Shown here: one piece after another, positions 1 through 46,421 of the stretch
How the letters are laid out: each line of letters begins with the position of its first letter
Position numbering within the stretch: position 1 is the stretch's first letter
Assembly: GCA_963677895.2 (NCBI GenBank)
Contig: CAXXGJ010000039.1
Span: 1 to 46,421, forward strand
DNA from: Treponemataceae bacterium
GTDB taxonomy: Bacteria; Spirochaetota; Spirochaetia; Treponematales; Rectinemataceae
Length of the DNA stretch: 46,421 bases
Direction of reading: 5' to 3'
Program-made: the position numbers

Positions 1-3000
1 ATTTAAAATTGAGAAAGGATTAAAAGTAGAGACAAATGCAAAGATAGAAAAGATAAAATCAACGGTAGTGGCAGGAATCATAGTATGGGGCACTAATTGG
101 TCTGTACCTAAATCATATAAGACATTATCAAGATTTATTAAAGAGAATGATTATGAAGAGACAAAAGAATGGAGAGAATGGCATATATATACTGAAGATG
201 ATTATTCGAAAAATAATATCACATGGGTACAAAGAACAATAATGAAGAAAGAATAACCTAACAACTGCTTCAACCCTATAACGCCTTTTGTTATGGTTTT
301 TGCGAGAAGATCACGCAAAAACCACGCCAATCCTTCGCTTCGCTCAGGAACAGGCGTTAAGGGTTAAGCCAATGTTAGGCAGACGCGCTTACGCGCGCGC
401 AAGATAAATCAATATATTTAAAGTAGTTATTCTTCAATTATAGATGAAAATTTGTACTTGACAAATAGATGCAATATGAATACTATTGAAGCAAGAGGTA
501 TTTATATGGCAAAGACTATTACTGTACGGCTTGATGAAACAAGCTATGATATATTCAAAAAGGCAGCAGAAGGACAAAAGAGAACTATATCTAACTATCT
601 TGAGTACGCCGCGTTAAACTTTACTGTCAATGAATCGATTGTTGATGATGAAGAAATGAAAGAAATACTTACCTTTGAAAAGGATCTTAAGAAAGGACTT
701 AAGGATATTTCATCGGGAAGGTATAAAGTAATTGCTTAACTATAAAATTGCAGAGACTGAAACCTTTGAAAAGAAGATCAGTACTCCGAAGTATAAATTC
801 TTATATAAAAAGATTAAAGAATATATATATCCGATATTGCGAGAGAATCCATATTTTGGATCGAATATAAAAAAGCTTAAAGGCGAGTACAAAGAAGTAT
901 ATAGATATCGTATAGGAGATTACAGGCTATTTTATAAAGTATCAGAAGAGACGGTTATAATATTCATCATTGATATAGAAAATCGTAAAGATGCATATAA
1001 GTAAAAGTAAAATTGCCTAACAAATGCTTCAACCCTATAACGCCTTTTGTCATGGGTTTGTGCAGAACAACAATGCACAAACCACGCCAATCCTTCGCTT
1101 CGCTCAGGAGCAGGCGTTAAGGGTTAAGCCAATGTTAGATTTATTGAATAACTAACTCTGTAAAAGATTGGCTTCTTTGGTGAAAAAAAGTATATACATT
1201 TATTCCAACAAAATAGTAACAAGATGCTAGTTTTACTAAAAGCATGAGTTATATTGAATATACTAGAATAATAAATTGTGAGGGGAATTATGCGTATTAT
1301 AAGAAAATCTAAGGATAAGGTATTTGTTCTAATTGCTATAATGCTTCTATTGAGTGCTAGTATCATTTATGCTCAAAATAAGGATAACCAAAGCATAGAA
1401 ATATCATTTCTTTATTCTAAAGTTTCTGGCTTTAGTAGCAATCAATATGCTATATGGGTTGAAAATGAAAATGGCGATTATATAAAAACAATATATGTCA
1501 CAAAATTTACAGCAACAAAAGGGTGGAAAACTAGACCTGAAGCGATTCCTGTATGGGTAAAAAAAATCAAATATTAGCAAAATTGGGAAAAAACAAGTTG
1601 ACCTAATAAGTGGAGCAACACCAAAAGACTGGTGAGCAAAAATATTATTGGGATTTTACAGATAATAATGGTAAGGCAGTAACTGATGGTAAGTATACAA
1701 TAGTATTTGAAGCTACCTTTGATGGAAATTCAAAGGATCCAAGTGAAGTTCAATATAAGGCGATAATAGATAAAGGAAAAACGATAGAAATATTAAAGAA
1801 TGGGGCAGAGTATAAAGGGAACAGTCAAAGAGGAAAGACAATGATTGATAATGTAAAATATGAAGTGGTAAAGAAATAATTAAAATCTAACAAATGCTTC
1901 AACCCTATAACGCCTTTTGTCATGGTTTTTGCAGAACAACAATGCAAAAACCACGCCAATCCTTCGCTTCGCTCAGGAACAGGCGTTAAGGGTTAAGCCA
2001 ATGTTGGATGGACAGGTATTATGGATCGTGTAGGTAGATGAAATAAATATAAAAGGAAAAAATGAAAAAGATAATTTATGTAATATTGATTATGTTTTGT
2101 TTAATTCAATATGGATATTCACAAGAGGAAGAGAGAAAATTTATTGCACAATATGTCGGCTGTGATAAATATTTATCATATACTGGATTATTTGATATTA
2201 ACAATAATGAAATAAAAATTTCTTCTAATAAGAATACTGAAGGAAATAATATTACTAAATTGGCTATTTATAGTATTATAGATAAAAATATTACACCATT
2301 TATTTTTGTTGATGGTCCAAAAATATATTCTGGAGAGATGGTGATTCTAGTTGATTTAAGTCTAGCTCCAAAAGAGTTTTATGGGTGGAGCATTAATATT
2401 TCAAGAGATATGTATTCAAAAAAAACCATCGGGAATTAATATTCAATGGTGGGCAAATGTAGGGAATAATACAACTGATGCAATCTATTTTATATGGAAT
2501 AAAAACGAAAATAGATTTAGAATAAATAGAATTGATCCATCTAATTATTAAGGAAAATAATATTTAATTAAGAAAAGTATATTGAATAATAAATGCCATC
2601 CAACAACTGCTTCAACCTTATAAATCCTTTGTCATGGTTCTTGCGAAAAGATCACGCAAGAACCACGCCAAGCCCTCGCTTCGCTCAGGCACGGATTTAA
2701 AGGTTAAGCCAATGTTAGATCGACCAAATGCGATATAATTCTATTCATATTTTAAAGGATCTTTTGTTATGGATAAACCAAAAGAATATTTTCACCTTGT
2801 AACAAATACAAAACTAGAACTTGGACAAAAGATTCTTTTTAACAAAGACACAAATAATATACTATATGATTTCTTTTTTAAAAAAGAGTTTAGAAATAAT
2901 GAAGGAAGAGATTGTTTTGATATTATAAACTCTGGATCAACACCTAGTGGATTGTTACTAAATGAAGAAGATACAAGAATAATTCATAAATATAATGATA

Positions 3001-45000: not shown

Positions 45001-46421
45001 TGAGAATGAAATGAAAAGCTTAATTTCTGAATGGATTCAAATAAAAAACAAAACCTAACAATTGCTTCAATCTTATAAAGACTTTTGTCATGGTTTTTAT
45101 GAGAAGATAACACAAAAAACATGATAATCCTTCGAATCTTTGCTACGCAACACCGCTCGGGCCAGGCTTTAAAGGTTAAGCCATTAAGCCAATGTTTTGT
45201 GGACGGGTTTCGCGTATTAATAATAATATTTAAGCTGTTTGCTTTTTAAAAGCATACAAAATGTATTAAGTATTGGTGATAATTATGGTGAATAGTACTG
45301 GTTCAATTCTTCAATTCGAAAATAGAAAAGCATTTAGAATATGGCTTGAAATCAACCATAGTTCTTCATATGGCATTTGGATTGTTATTATCAAAGGAAA
45401 CAAAGATTTTACCTCAAATGATGCCTTGGAAGAAGCAATCTGTTTTGGTTGGATTGATGGGCTAATGAAGTCAATAGATGAAACAAAGTATAAAAAGTAC
45501 TTCTCAAGAAGGATTGATAAAAAGAAGTGGTCTGAAAAGAATAAGGCAATCTATAAAGGACTTAAAGAAAAAGGATTAATTACAGAGTTCGGAATAGAAG
45601 CATATCAAGATAATGATAAGAATAATGAGGCCGTAGATAAGAATAGTGTACATGCTGCCAATATTAAAAAATTAAAAGACGTATTGTGCATGGAAAATGA
45701 TACATTGAAACTACTTGAAAGTACTACACCTTCTAGACAGAAGCAACTAGCGGGATTCTATTGTGATGCAAAAACTGAAGAGACACGAAGAAAAAGAAAA
45801 GAAAAAATAATTGTAGCCATAAAGAATAATTACAAAGGAATGTTGTATTAATTTTCGGCCAACAACTGCGTAAATCCTATTACACTCTTAGTCATGGTTT
45901 TTGCGAGGAGATACGGTAAATAACAAGCTAATCATTCGTTTCGCTCAGGAATGAACGTTAATGGTTAAGCCAATGGTAAAAATACTAAAAAAAAGATTGA
46001 CATAATTCAATATCAGATGCAAAAGTATTATATGTTATAATTTGTTTTCTTAAAAGAAGGAGAACTTGCATGAAGCTTACAATTTTTAAATCGCTGATTT
46101 TCTTCGGACTGATCACGTCGTTGCTGGTACTCGGTAGCTGTGCGACAATATTTAATAATAAACAAACCACTGTATCATCATCTTCAAAGGTTGCTAGTGA
46201 AGTAACAATTTTAGAAAATGGTTCTGTGGTTTATCAAGGATCACTTCCTGCAACAATTAATGTAAATGGTAATAATAACTATACAGTTCAGTATAAAGAT
46301 AAAGATGGAAATTCACGTACACTGCAACTTCAAAAAAAGATAAGTGGATGGTTTATAGCTGATGTCTTATTAATTGGAGGGTGGATTATAGATCTTATAA
46401 CAGGCGATGTAATGGAATATA

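Follow-up and report, generated by a model that had tools for sequence, protein, structure and literature searches.

An internal stretch of a probable sedentary chromosomal integron in an uncultured spirochaete, with cassettes also found at chromosomal docking sites

The base composition of this locus raises the question of what it is and whether it belongs to the genome in which it was binned. The window (the whole stretch of DNA analysed, 46,421 nucleotides, which is contig C39) has an overall G+C of 0.334 against 0.563 for the remaining genome, a contrast already pointed out in an initial annotation, and 21 of its 23 2-kb windows lie between 0.30 and 0.36; the two that do not, 6001-8000 (0.49) and 30001-32000 (0.395), contain an IS66 and an IS30-like element respectively. 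We consider it very probable that the contig, with some 50 mobile cassettes, is an internal stretch of a sedentary chromosomal integron whose host is an uncultured spirochaete, and that such cassettes also sit at docking sites elsewhere in the genome.

A profile built from the window's own repeats and run on the window gave 99 matches, of which 51 are on the + strand and 48 are reverse-strand echoes, the + strand scoring higher at every paired site. The 51 co-oriented attC sites form an unbroken array across the window (Table 1); the initial annotation was right about the array but its count of 48 sites was too low for this profile. All but one are near full length (50/51, 123-157 nt), and three of them, starting at 18904, 20479 and 26226, are among the sites added to the earlier count and belong to a divergent subfamily that scores only 37-42 bits. 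The sole cut site is attC 8, where, as previously claimed, an IS66 element (inverted repeats at 5774 and 7850) has taken out the 5' part of the site, leaving 7850-7888, along with the end of an FMN-reductase gene. Start-to-start distances between sites range from 545 to 3649 bp and delimit 52 cassette intervals, 50 whole and two cut by the contig ends. The genes are small and mostly on the + strand: in the ORF listing, 47 of the 52 intervals contain the start of a + strand ORF that is 50 aa or longer. In four of the remaining five, a + strand ORF either begins in the attC just before the interval or continues past the end of the contig, and the last has nothing but a - strand ORF of 112 aa. 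The contig breaks within cassettes at both ends, and no integrase, attI or host flank is present on it.

Table 1. Features of the window; positions count from the first nucleotide of the contig.
Feature	Position	Strand	Evidence or remark
Cassette array segment of sedentary chromosomal integron	1..46421	+	runs off both contig ends
attC 1	255..387	+	profile match 124.7 bits; folded
attC 2	1014..1147	+	profile match
attC 3	1884..2016	+	profile match
attC 4	2597..2727	+	profile match
attC 5	3375..3507	+	profile match
attC 6	4216..4348	+	profile match
attC 7	5110..5242	+	profile match
attC 8, 3' remnant only (model positions 93-129)	7850..7888	+	profile match 23.3 bits
attC 9	8758..8891	+	profile match
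attC 10	9305..9435	+	profile match
attC 11	10068..10199	+	profile match
attC 12	10792..10932	+	profile match
attC 13	11596..11728	+	profile match
attC 14	12173..12301	+	profile match
attC 15	12837..12967	+	profile match
attC 16	13504..13636	+	profile match
attC 17, long variable loop	14446..14602	+	profile match
attC 18	15809..15931	+	profile match; folded, -40.1 kcal/mol
attC 19	16498..16630	+	profile match
attC 20	17438..17568	+	profile match
attC 21	18347..18479	+	profile match
attC 22, divergent subfamily	18904..19033	+	profile match 37.0 bits
attC 23	19683..19822	+	profile match
attC 24, divergent subfamily	20479..20606	+	profile match 39.2 bits
attC 25	21395..21526	+	profile match
attC 26	22103..22242	+	profile match
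attC 27	23044..23191	+	profile match
attC 28	23787..23919	+	profile match
attC 29	24650..24781	+	profile match
attC 30	25456..25588	+	profile match
attC 31, divergent subfamily	26226..26354	+	profile match 42.5 bits
attC 32	26895..27026	+	profile match
attC 33	27644..27776	+	profile match
attC 34	28469..28601	+	profile match; folded
attC 35	31104..31234	+	profile match
attC 36	32041..32173	+	profile match
attC 37	33175..33306	+	profile match
attC 38	34016..34148	+	profile match
attC 39	34732..34864	+	profile match
attC 40	35683..35815	+	profile match
attC 41	36339..36471	+	profile match
attC 42	37220..37352	+	profile match
attC 43	38211..38343	+	profile match
attC 44	39522..39644	+	profile match
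attC 45	40502..40634	+	profile match
attC 46	41340..41462	+	profile match
attC 47	42154..42301	+	profile match
attC 48	43132..43264	+	profile match
attC 49	43802..43932	+	profile match
attC 50	45052..45207	+	profile match
attC 51, degenerate R' end	45856..45988	+	profile match 68.8 bits
Toxin-antitoxin cassette: RHH/NikA-like ORF 452-739, ParE toxin 732-1004	452..1004	+	domain match
DUF2441 cassette	2769..3356	+	175.7 bits
VapB-VapC (PIN) cassette	3615..4222	+	domain match
NADPH-dependent FMN reductase cassette, 3' end lost to IS66	5291..5800	+	domain match
IS66-family element, 0.49 G+C	5774..7850	+	DDE_Tnp_IS66 276 bits; terminal inverted repeats
IS66 TnpB fragment	5847..6101	+	
IS66 transposase	6237..7817	+	
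BrnT toxin, reverse-oriented cassette	11205..11501	-	94.3 bits
DUF4180 cassette	11814..12179	+	domain match
2-thiouracil desulfurase family cassette	15993..16406	+	161.9 bits
AbiJ_NTD5-domain protein	16644..17429	+	93.1 bits; weak TIR-like effector match 31.5 bits
MazE-MazF/PemK cassette	19086..19678	+	domain match
Nitroreductase cassette	19915..20418	+	domain match
GNAT acetyltransferase cassette	27135..27650	+	domain match
IS30-like transposase (HTH_38 + rve), within cassette 35	29837..31042	-	domain match
SAM methyltransferase cassette	31259..32020	+	domain match
CoiA_N-domain protein cassette	32203..33162	+	domain match
Second VapB-VapC cassette	33415..34022	+	domain match
GNAT cassette	34049..34738		domain match
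GNAT cassette	35837..36307		domain match
Metallophosphoesterase cassette	36495..37211	+	domain match
Short-chain dehydrogenase cassette	37377..38207	+	domain match
PhzF-family cassette	39681..40493	+	171.4 bits
SAM methyltransferase cassette	42187..43131		domain match
GNAT cassette	43038..43793		domain match
NAD(P)-binding/NmrA-like cassette	44072..45058	+	domain match

The repeats have the canonical attC build, and the R''/L''-L'/R' inverted-repeat structure first ascribed to them is borne out in its boxes, spacer, bulges and compensatory stem changes. They begin with YCTAACA at the 5' end and finish with TGTTAGR at the 3' end, there is an unpaired 3-nt spacer on either side, and the L box has one extra base with a second bulge 7 nt further in; the two bulged bases, T and G, are both in the bottom strand's R''/L'' arm. 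RNAalifold predicted 21 pairs, 12 of which show compensatory double changes (one example stem pair is CG in 25 copies, UA in 21 and GC in 2, a second UA in 28 and GC in 17). Four bottom strands folded as DNA gave -35.5 to -40.1 kcal/mol with z from -8.0 to -11.3 (all four at -8.0 or below), and 0 of 200 shuffles were as stable. No Rfam family matches the repeat, which would fit a REP or MITE-like palindromic element lying by chance between genes, yet such an element is hardly credible given the R/L boxes with their AAC/GTT triplets, spacer and two bulges, the single orientation with one copy per gene, the IntI and attI at the array head in kin genomes, and insertion junctions that fall exactly at G|TT.

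Stepwise excision and reinsertion of cassettes by IntI is established integron biology. In this array each cassette consists of a small, mostly promoterless gene with its attC behind it. The bottom strand of that attC would form an imperfect hairpin that carries the R and L boxes, two bulged bases and, at its centre, an unpaired spacer. IntI would cut the folded site between G and TT. A cassette would leave as a circle when two attC sites recombine, and recombination of an attC with an attI-type site would reinsert it.

The integrase and attI were stated from the outset to be missing from the assembly, and neither was found there: there is no IntI or intI fragment anywhere in its 3.51 Mb, and no attI core of the type seen in G050, a genome of the same genus, at three or fewer mismatches. 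The best TIGR02249 match scores 103+56 bits against a cut-off of 265, is without model positions 179-235 and is top-scoring as Xer-type. A relic array, that is a CALIN whose IntI has been lost rather than left unassembled and whose cassettes no longer move, would fit this absence as well as the two IS elements, one of which destroyed an attC; moreover, the CALIN counts of Cury et al. (PMC4889954) place half of CALINs in genomes without IntI. We nevertheless think a relic quite unlikely, as the genome is a MAG that is 92.8% complete (with 5.5% contamination, and visibly mixing strains) and the contig is broken inside cassettes at both ends, IntI is present in all three kin genomes tested, 50 of the 51 sites are intact with their pairing kept, and at two sites whole cassettes distinguish the co-assembled strains. 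An integrase is probably present in this strain but unassembled, and cassette recombination is probably ongoing.

A covariance model of the site finds it in 21 of 69 family genomes (this one included) and 13 of 21 genera, and in the three kin genomes tested a true IntI lies beside arrays of the same attC, at five loci scoring 356-462 bits, all over the TIGR02249 cut-off (one re-scored at 445.6 bits). In G050 no fewer than 171 attC sites make up an array over ~150 kb, at 0.28-0.36 G+C, within a 1.37-Mb contig whose flanks are at 0.55-0.64, and its IntI gene is ~880 bases from the nearest attC of the array. The window has 41 matches of 250 nt or more to the kin arrays, covering 19,024 of its 46,421 bases, mostly cassette-length, at 72-95% identity and in shuffled order, with most of them to G050. 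The designation as a sedentary chromosomal integron is thus upheld by the kin integrases, the G050 array and these matches. A contig 23 G+C points under the rest of its bin and with no host flank may of course have come from some other organism of low G+C in the sample, and short contigs with the same attC, which are easily misplaced, are found under many unrelated MAG labels. This is very unlikely to have happened here: because the G050 array lies inside a large high-G+C contig next to a true IntI, mis-binning is ruled out as the main reading, and the window is further bound to the genus by the kin matches and to its own bin by the same attC on three high-G+C contigs of 405-584 kb, so that the earlier statement that this attC occurs on large contigs and in kin genomes holds true.

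The intI gene runs in the same direction as the cassettes in G050 and in a second kin genome, G014, a likeness to the chromosomal integrons of the T. denticola type in the same phylum; Treponema integrase is reported to be transcribed in the cassette direction in the section of PMC3607928 cited here, and the corresponding passage of PMC9668308 calls this layout typical of Spirochaetota IntIs. The hosts here, however, are outside Treponema, which the 2013 paper (PMC3607928) describes, in that section, as then the only spirochaete clade known to have integrons, and in G041, another genome of the family, the layout is the classical divergent one.

The base composition of the cassettes had been called foreign, a reading that is not needed. 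From polarised substitutions the equilibrium G+C is estimated at 0.44 for cassettes, with 312 changes in 10 triplets, and at 0.38 for host flank, with 234 changes at one host locus. The test is a small one, and parsimony is prone to count too many AT-to-GC changes where DNA is AT-rich. Since the two values are close, a foreign donor is unnecessary, and low cassette G+C is best read as that of accessory DNA near mutational equilibrium, with no import from low-G+C donors required; the core chromosome would be kept above that equilibrium by some other force. A cassette pool made in, or steadily imported from, low-G+C donors and too young to have ameliorated would explain the gap in GC3 (0.23 in 22 cassette ORFs against 0.70 in 106 host ORFs) and the occurrence of the same attC type on contigs labelled as many phyla, and Ghaly et al. 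(PMC9668308, in the part relevant here) describe near-identical attCs as common to different phyla and domains. We regard such a pool as unlikely. Recent substitutions in the host flank lean the same way as those in cassettes, and the genome has further low-G+C islands that carry no attC. Most cassettes common to the window and G050 are 84-95% identical, against 92-95% for host DNA, about as diverged and so in the genus since roughly the species split. The foreign-labelled contigs are all short (1.7-11.4 kb), most are at 0.30-0.34 G+C, and most look like attC arrays with no host backbone evident; array-type fragments of this kind in MAGs labelled with unrelated phyla are likely to be mis-binned.

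The same attC also occurs at 13 sites on eight other contigs (C2 1, C4 1, C5 2, C6 1, C13 3, C18 2, C28 2, C30 1; two of the three on C13 are weak or partial), the same eight contigs as first listed but with two more sites than the 11 claimed. These sites are directly 3' of genes of 0.21-0.39 G+C set in DNA of 0.55-0.66, as had been noted, except on C30, where low-G+C defence genes follow the attC and have none of their own. The idea that cassettes land singly outside the array is only half right, in that they do lie outside it but several form mini-arrays of two or three cassettes at attI-like sites. One locus has three alleles, on C4, C13 and C28, whose flanks are 90-98% identical and which hold one, three and two different cassettes respectively; in the sister species G049 the flanks meet with a 6-nt overlap at G|TTAGG, a precise empty site, and in G050 the locus is occupied by yet another cassette, of 1.9 kb. 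A second locus has its alleles on C2 and C5, and exact G|TTAGG junctions are found at both loci. The differences in cargo claimed between co-assembled strains thus exist at two allelic hot spots, and point to recent recombination in the population. The C6 cassette is not a clean single-cassette insertion, since it lies within an 8-kb island entirely absent from G050.

These small clusters of one to three attC far from any integrase, at GTT-core sites and with an empty site in a sister species, are like CALIN/SALIN elements and cassette insertion at secondary (attG) sites; sections of PMC4889954 and PMC8618304 treat CALINs and how off-target insertion might give rise to them, and attG insertion is treated by Loot et al. 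2024, as cited in a passage of PMC12614218. What differs here is that one site takes different cassettes in co-occurring strains and in a sister species, and that the docking cores resemble the kin attI core. As both have the form ...ATTG|TTAG, the targets may be orphan attI-type sites and not just any GNT site. Neither of the two docking-site leaders yielded a sigma-70-type promoter.

The gene families reported for the satellite cassettes were recovered, and their cargo is of defence type, including Shedu, RT_UG17+SLATT, SoFic, OLD-like ATPases and NACHT. With PADLOC (E <= 1e-5), 9 of 15 satellite cassette proteins have matches (SduA 480 bits, RT_UG17 436, SoFic 376, RTasSLATT 144) as opposed to 3 of 67 window ORFs, and the median cassette is 1479 bp at docking sites and 816 bp in the main array. 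Judged by family names, from which the defence roles are read, docking-site cassettes probably protect against phages, and the main array is poor in recognisable defence genes, the AbiJ_NTD5-domain cassette being the only one in the window with a clear defence flavour. Integron cassettes have been proposed as anti-phage stores by Darracq et al. (preprint 10.1101/2024.07.02.601686) and Kieffer et al. (preprint 10.1101/2024.07.02.601719), and the available text of the former ranks Shedu and PD-T7-4 among the commonest defence systems in cassettes, which agrees with the Shedu and a weak PD-T7-4-like match found here, and contains no occurrence of Spirochaetes or Treponema. What differs is that recognisable systems here are at docking sites rather than in the main array.

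The integron adds a new and well-documented case to a kind of element that was already known, every component of which is in print, and the novelty initially claimed was overstated: spirochaete integrons, CALIN/SALIN and attG insertion, and defence cassettes have all been published. Pfam matches were obtained for 43 of 70 window ORFs, and by these the cargo is typical of sedentary chromosomal integrons, with five toxin-antitoxin sets (one reverse-oriented), four GNATs, methyltransferases and DUFs; no GNAT passed the cut-off of a resistance equivalog. The two VapB-VapC cassettes are near-duplicates (95% over 300 nt). As in the Vibrio cholerae superintegron and other such integrons, there are long arrays of small co-oriented cassettes with highly similar attC in any one array, many cassettes for toxin-antitoxin pairs and acetyltransferases, some of them reversed, and a distribution across related species between which cassette order varies. 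The G050 array also matches the Vibrio superintegron in size. The differences from Vibrio are the co-directional intI of G050 and G014, an IntI that is unassembled in this genome, and the gap in base composition, which in Vibrio is a few points between cassettes and host, and is far larger in this spirochaete, with cassette genes at ~30% G+C in a ~56% G+C genome.

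A repeat profile built by iteration from one copy in the window gave 99 matches there, 51 on the + strand and 48 weaker reverse-strand echoes of these palindromic sites. The array described in the initial annotation therefore stands, its count of 48 attC sites being slightly low; three of the missed sites belong to a divergent subfamily. Fifty of the sites are near full length (123-157 nt) and the remaining one is a 3' remnant beside an IS66 element. The sites are separated by 52 intervals, 47 of which hold the start of a + strand ORF that is 50 aa or longer, and in four further intervals a + strand ORF begins in the preceding attC or runs past the contig end. 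The sites start with YCTAACA and finish with TGTTAGR, and when the 50 near-full-length sites are aligned every AAC/GTT core column is either invariant or conserved at 90% or more; the inner boxes are GCTT(C)AACC and GGTTAAGC, so that the L box has one extra base, and a few pairs inward there is a second bulge, likewise of one base. When folded as DNA, four bottom strands gave -35.5 to -40.1 kcal/mol (z -8.0 to -11.3), and all four have a 7-bp R stem, a 3-nt unpaired spacer on each side, a variable branched tip and two single-base bulges (T and G), both on one arm. Double changes that keep pairing were seen at 12 of the 21 consensus pairs of the 50-site alignment (one pair, for example, is CG 25, UA 21, GC 2). 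Both the inverted repeat R''-L''...L'-R' with AAC/GTT and the folded bottom strand by which attC sites are recognised are thus present. The array is homogeneous, with 29 copies 61-94% identical to a 160-nt reference across its full length, and its 51 sites place it beyond the 10-20 cassettes with homogeneous attC that mark out a sedentary chromosomal integron (SCI). Rfam gave no match in the window at gathering thresholds; its library does not contain attC, the model used by integron software lying outside it.

Pfam matches were found for 43 of the 70 window ORFs, and the cargo is the mix usual in sedentary chromosomal integrons. It includes toxin-antitoxin genes (ParE with an RHH partner, two near-identical VapBC, MazEF and a reverse-oriented BrnT), enzymes (four GNAT acetyltransferases, two methyltransferases, an FMN reductase, a nitroreductase, an SDR, a PhzF and a metallophosphoesterase) and several DUFs; two cassettes are duplicated within the array, and IS66 and IS30-like insertion sequences break into others. 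When 13 proteins (the four GNATs, two beta-lactamase-fold proteins, reductases, methyltransferases and three recombinases) were scanned for resistance none reached an NCBIfam equivalog cut-off, the AAC(6') models giving 26-40 bits against cut-offs of 250-450.

Of the features of a complete integron, neither intI nor attI was found in the assembly under study (G000; 92.8% complete, 5.5% contamination), and as assembled the window and all 13 satellite sites on other contigs have the form of a CALIN/SALIN, that is attC without intI nearby. A search of G000 for IntI with its specific extra domain gave seven TIGR02249 matches, none above the cut-off, tblastn of IntI from kin found only Xer-type genes at 27-30% identity, and the synteny of the genes that flank IntI in the same-genus genome G050 was not found. 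The contig starts and stops inside cassettes and holds no attI, nor was a G050-type attI core found elsewhere in G000 at up to three mismatches. Two candidate integrases on contig C30 were rejected. The first, a 295-aa recombinase, gave 156 bits against a cut-off of 265 and is without model positions 179-235 and without the extra domain; it matches best to XerA-type, at 178.8 bits, which again is under the 220 cut-off of that model. The second, a 331-aa ORF divergent from the C30 attC, has no Pfam or PADLOC match. A related Xer-type recombinase without the extra domain is itself a cassette of the G050 array, therefore its nearness to attC is no feature of an integron platform; similar recombinase genes lie within ~130 nt of attC at two places in G014, a further genome of the family.

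IntI is above the cut-off in all three kin genomes tested (G050, G014 and G041, the last also of this family), at five loci with 356-462 bits. In G050 it heads an array as large as those of Vibrio, with at least 171 attC sites and a G+C of 0.28-0.36 between flanks of 0.55-0.64. Two more IntI-headed arrays lie on contigs C1 and C7 of G050, and its three IntI genes may represent three integrons or a strain mixture, contamination being listed as 7%. The first cassette junction in kin lies ~175 nt past the intI stop and reads ...ATG/TTAG or ...TTG/TTAG (here and below a slash within a site marks the junction). In G050 and G014 intI and the cassettes point the same way, as in the Treponema integrons treated in the text of PMC3607928, an orientation called typical of Spirochaetota in that of PMC9668308, whereas in G041 intI is divergent from the cassettes.

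The window carries no flank, and the chromosomal location of the array is observed in kin only, where the arrays lie on contigs of 1.37 Mb (G050), 2.40 Mb (G014) and 269 kb (G041). A covariance model of the attC site, run on 69 family genomes, found attC in 21 of them (G000 included), from 13 of 21 genera. Matches to kin arrays, 41 of them and each 250 nt or longer, cover 19,024 of the 46,421 window bases; these are mostly of cassette length, at 72-95% identity and in scattered and different order, and cassettes would appear to move as units. Given these matches, and since three contigs in the G000 bin, of 405-584 kb, carry this attC too, it is unlikely that the window is mis-binned, and we infer that it belongs to this spirochaete lineage.

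The 13 satellite attC sites are spread over eight contigs, each after genes at 0.21-0.39 G+C set in DNA of 0.55-0.66 (on C30 the low-G+C genes come after the site). Satellite cassettes are longer than those of the array, with a median of 1479 bp (n=12, boundaries placed by hand) as against 816 bp (n=48; Mann-Whitney p = 5.6e-7). That the window is a real integron array with satellite cassettes is well supported. One locus, with a DUF188 gene on one side and a 107-aa ORF plus an S41 peptidase gene on the other, occurs in three versions, on contigs C4, C13 and C28, where the flanks are 90-98% identical and the alleles split at one left-hand point and rejoin past the last attC. The left junction is ...TTG/TTAGG (TTG/TAAGA in C4); in the same-genus genome G049, where the site is empty, the two flanks overlap by 6 nt to give ...ATAATTG/TTAGGCGGAC, and occupied and empty alleles differ precisely at G/TTAGG, which lends indirect support to recombination by IntI at G/TT. 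A second locus, with the core ...TTG/TTAGG, occurs in different versions on contigs C2 and C5, and the cassette on C6 starts at ...TAATAATTG/TTAGG in an 8-kb island that is absent from G050. As these cores resemble the attI cores of kin, the docking sites are read, from sequence comparison, as putative orphan attI-type or attG-type targets at which small CALINs have built up. Promoters suspected by eye at the leaders of both docking loci were dropped after a consensus scan of the leaders found no promoter-like site.

The C2 docking site adjoins another defence gene, since a gene for a GmrSD_N/NsnA-like and Schlafen AlbA_2 protein follows directly after the attC, outside the cassette. Past the S41 peptidase gene the C4 allele has an extra 6.8 kb that is absent from the C28 allele, a second variable segment, without attC, that encodes a TctABC transporter, an FAD oxidoreductase and a LysR protein.

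Table. Positions and contents of features in the window, in other contigs of G000 and in kin (L008, L015 and L032 are parts of G000:C2, G000:C30 and G050:C5)
Feature	Location	Description
IS66 terminal inverted repeats	window 5774 and 7850	
VapBC cassette, two copies	window 3547-3846 / 33347-33646	95% identity
DUF2007 + DUF3795 cassette, two copies	window 25569-26246 / 41498-42174	90-92% identity
Cassette-start GC-rich hairpin, examples	window 11715-11745, 3494-3525, 15918-15945	
IntI of G050	G050:C5:550,880-551,806	
Xer-type recombinase cassette	L032 9687-10571 (G050:C5)	reverse-oriented, low G+C
Xer/IntI-related recombinase	G000:C30:25873-26760	0.53 G+C, 7 kb from C30 attC
Satellite cargo	G000:C2	OLD/AriA-like ATPase
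Satellite cargo	G000:C5	1262-aa and 477-aa proteins
Satellite cargo	G000:C6	RT_UG17 (435.8 bits) + RT-associated SLATT (143.9 bits)
Satellite cargo	G000:C18	SoFic and beta-lactamase-fold protein
Satellite cargo, C4/C13/C28 locus	G000:C4	1 cassette: 1086-aa protein, sub-threshold NACHT match
Satellite cargo, C4/C13/C28 locus	G000:C13	3 cassettes: weak TIR-like protein, Shedu SduA, HNH protein
Satellite cargo, C4/C13/C28 locus	G000:C28	2 cassettes: DUF4145 and DUF6414
C4/C13/C28 locus in kin	G050	different 1.9-kb cassette, 600-aa ATPase-Toprim protein
C4/C13/C28 locus in kin	G049	empty
GmrSD_N/AlbA_2 gene	G000:C2:324264-326033 (L008 4264-6033)	0.47 G+C
Extra segment of C4 allele	G000:C4:13237-20055	
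Defence-type island	G000:C30:9853-18862 (L015 1853-10862)	9 kb, low G+C, without own attC

The gene families that the initial annotation named at the satellites were recovered by domain and PADLOC scans, and PADLOC matches were found for 9 of 15 satellite cassette proteins against 3 of 67 window ORFs, where they are weak or generic. The 397-aa protein on C13 is predicted to be Shedu (SduA), with a PADLOC match of 480.3 bits over 10-396, thus at full length, and a C-terminal nuclease domain (Pfam SduA_C, 101.2 bits). On C6 the two ORFs overlap, with attC directly after them, and would represent a DRT-type RT_UG17 with its SLATT partner; the 372-aa protein on C18 is likewise predicted to be SoFic (PADLOC 375.7 bits), since Fic_N, Fic and the SoFic-like C-terminal domain are all present in Pfam. 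For the two putative STAND/NACHT defence NTPases the domain scores lie under the family cut-offs, that of 1086 aa matching NACHT at 24.1 bits (cut-off 26.7) with no PADLOC match, and that of 1262 aa matching AAA_22 at 22.1 bits (cut-off 27) and PifA at 38.1 bits over just 67 residues. Downstream of the C30 attC there is also a low-G+C island of defence type, which contains an RT_UG9 gene split in three ORFs with an RT-associated PolA, a Vsr and Dcm pair, an ankyrin protein, a sigma-70-like protein and an HATPase_c_3 protein.

The G+C of the window is 0.334 as against 0.563 for the other 38 contigs together, and its 23 two-kb windows range from 0.30 to 0.36, except for two that hold insertion sequences, with GC and AT skew positive in all 23. 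At third codon positions the cassette ORFs (22 with Pfam support) have a G+C of 0.23 and the host ORFs (106 long ones) one of 0.70; over their own length the attC sites are at 0.46. The low G+C to which the initial annotation drew attention is thus clear; the base composition that it called foreign does not require a foreign donor, as cassettes and host flank lean to a similar AT-rich equilibrium. When substitutions were polarised with an outgroup, ten cassette triplets gave 114 GC-to-AT and 198 AT-to-GC changes, an equilibrium G+C of 0.44 at a current value of 0.31, whilst 5.6 kb of host flank (G000/G050 with G049 as outgroup) gave 172 and 62, an equilibrium of 0.38 at a current 0.63. Cassettes would thus lie near the equilibrium and the core genome far above it, a result that is a lead only because the test is small and based on parsimony, and with equilibria so similar a mutation process driving the cassettes alone to AT is unsupported. 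The low-G+C ends of C3 (last 3 kb) and C11 (last 8 kb), considered as array junctions, have no attC and are other islands, of 0.24-0.33 G+C, which argues that low G+C is general to the accessory DNA of G000 beyond the cassettes. A literature search and term look-ups in a set of integron papers found no statement of a large cassette-host G+C gap, 'GC content' in PMC9668308 and 'G+C' in PMC4889954 occurring in methods text only, and such a statement may nonetheless be in print.

The exact attC pattern was found in the public genome collection in 32 stretches at 26 loci (L080-L105), one of which part-duplicates another. Two of the loci are on contigs with a spirochaete label, 33 and 269 kb long, and the other 24 are on contigs of 1.7-11.4 kb, mostly at 0.30-0.34 G+C and with 1-13 attC each, from MAGs labelled Treponema, Bacteroidales, Thermococci, Pacearchaeota, Sulfuricella, Anaerolinea, Gallionellaceae, Eubacteriales, Clostridiales, Omnitrophota, Thermodesulfovibrionales, Sphingobacteriia and others. 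Several of these short contigs have cassettes in common with G000 or G050 at 84-98% identity. Such foreign-labelled fragments may reflect true transfer; the simplest reading is that they are probably mis-binned as a result of the composition gap. Mis-binned fragments bear on reports of attC sharing across phyla and domains, and surveys of integron distribution and of cross-domain cassette sharing in MAGs should look out for them, as such arrays part from their host in composition-based binning.

It is possible to bring these observations together in a model with two tiers for the integron of this spirochaete family. The first would be a giant array of small silent cassettes, at ~30% G+C within genomes of 56-65%, that escape the force (biased gene conversion or selection) keeping the core above an AT-leaning mutational equilibrium; the cassettes would stay low in G+C because they are moved by site-specific and not homologous recombination. 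For the second, the core chromosome would have a few orphan attI-type docking sites, where larger defence cassettes are swapped at the population level. As a side effect the composition gap would scatter fragments of the array into the bins of unrelated phyla, which, if true, would inflate some of the apparent cross-phylum or cross-domain attC sharing. Taken as a whole this model is speculative, and it would seem rather unlikely that all of it holds.

The components of the array are already known. Integrons in Spirochaetota are reported in the texts of PMC3607928, PMC4889954 and PMC8618304, spirochaete-type attC models in that of PMC8352920, CALINs and insertion at secondary sites in PMC4889954 and in Loot et al. 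2024 as cited in PMC12614218, and cassette-borne defence systems, with Shedu and PD-T7-4 among the commonest, in the text of 10.1101/2024.07.02.601686. The present case adds a new host group, whose arrays match those of Vibrio in size, a composition gap of unusual width, and fixed docking sites with alleles that are occupied, filled with other cassettes or empty. Very large chromosomal integrons are thereby extended to free-living spirochaetes outside Treponema, and the difference of 47 points in third-codon-position G+C that separates cassettes from host offers a convenient natural test of the forces that hold bacterial genomes at high G+C. The alleles in co-occurring strains, with another cassette in one sister species and an empty site in another, point to exchange at the docking sites and provide a clean natural example of it, with a cargo that by family consists of phage-defence genes.

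Finally, many cassettes open with a small GC-rich hairpin (GAC GCC TTC GGC GC and variants), ~8 nt past the R' GTT. Sixteen of 50 cassette starts fold at -5 kcal/mol or below, as against 6.1% of 1000 control 27-mers, and the same motif starts the first cassettes after the attI of kin and the right flank of the docking site. As the hairpin moves with the downstream cassette, it may represent, for the cassettes of this family, a 5' RNA or ssDNA feature.
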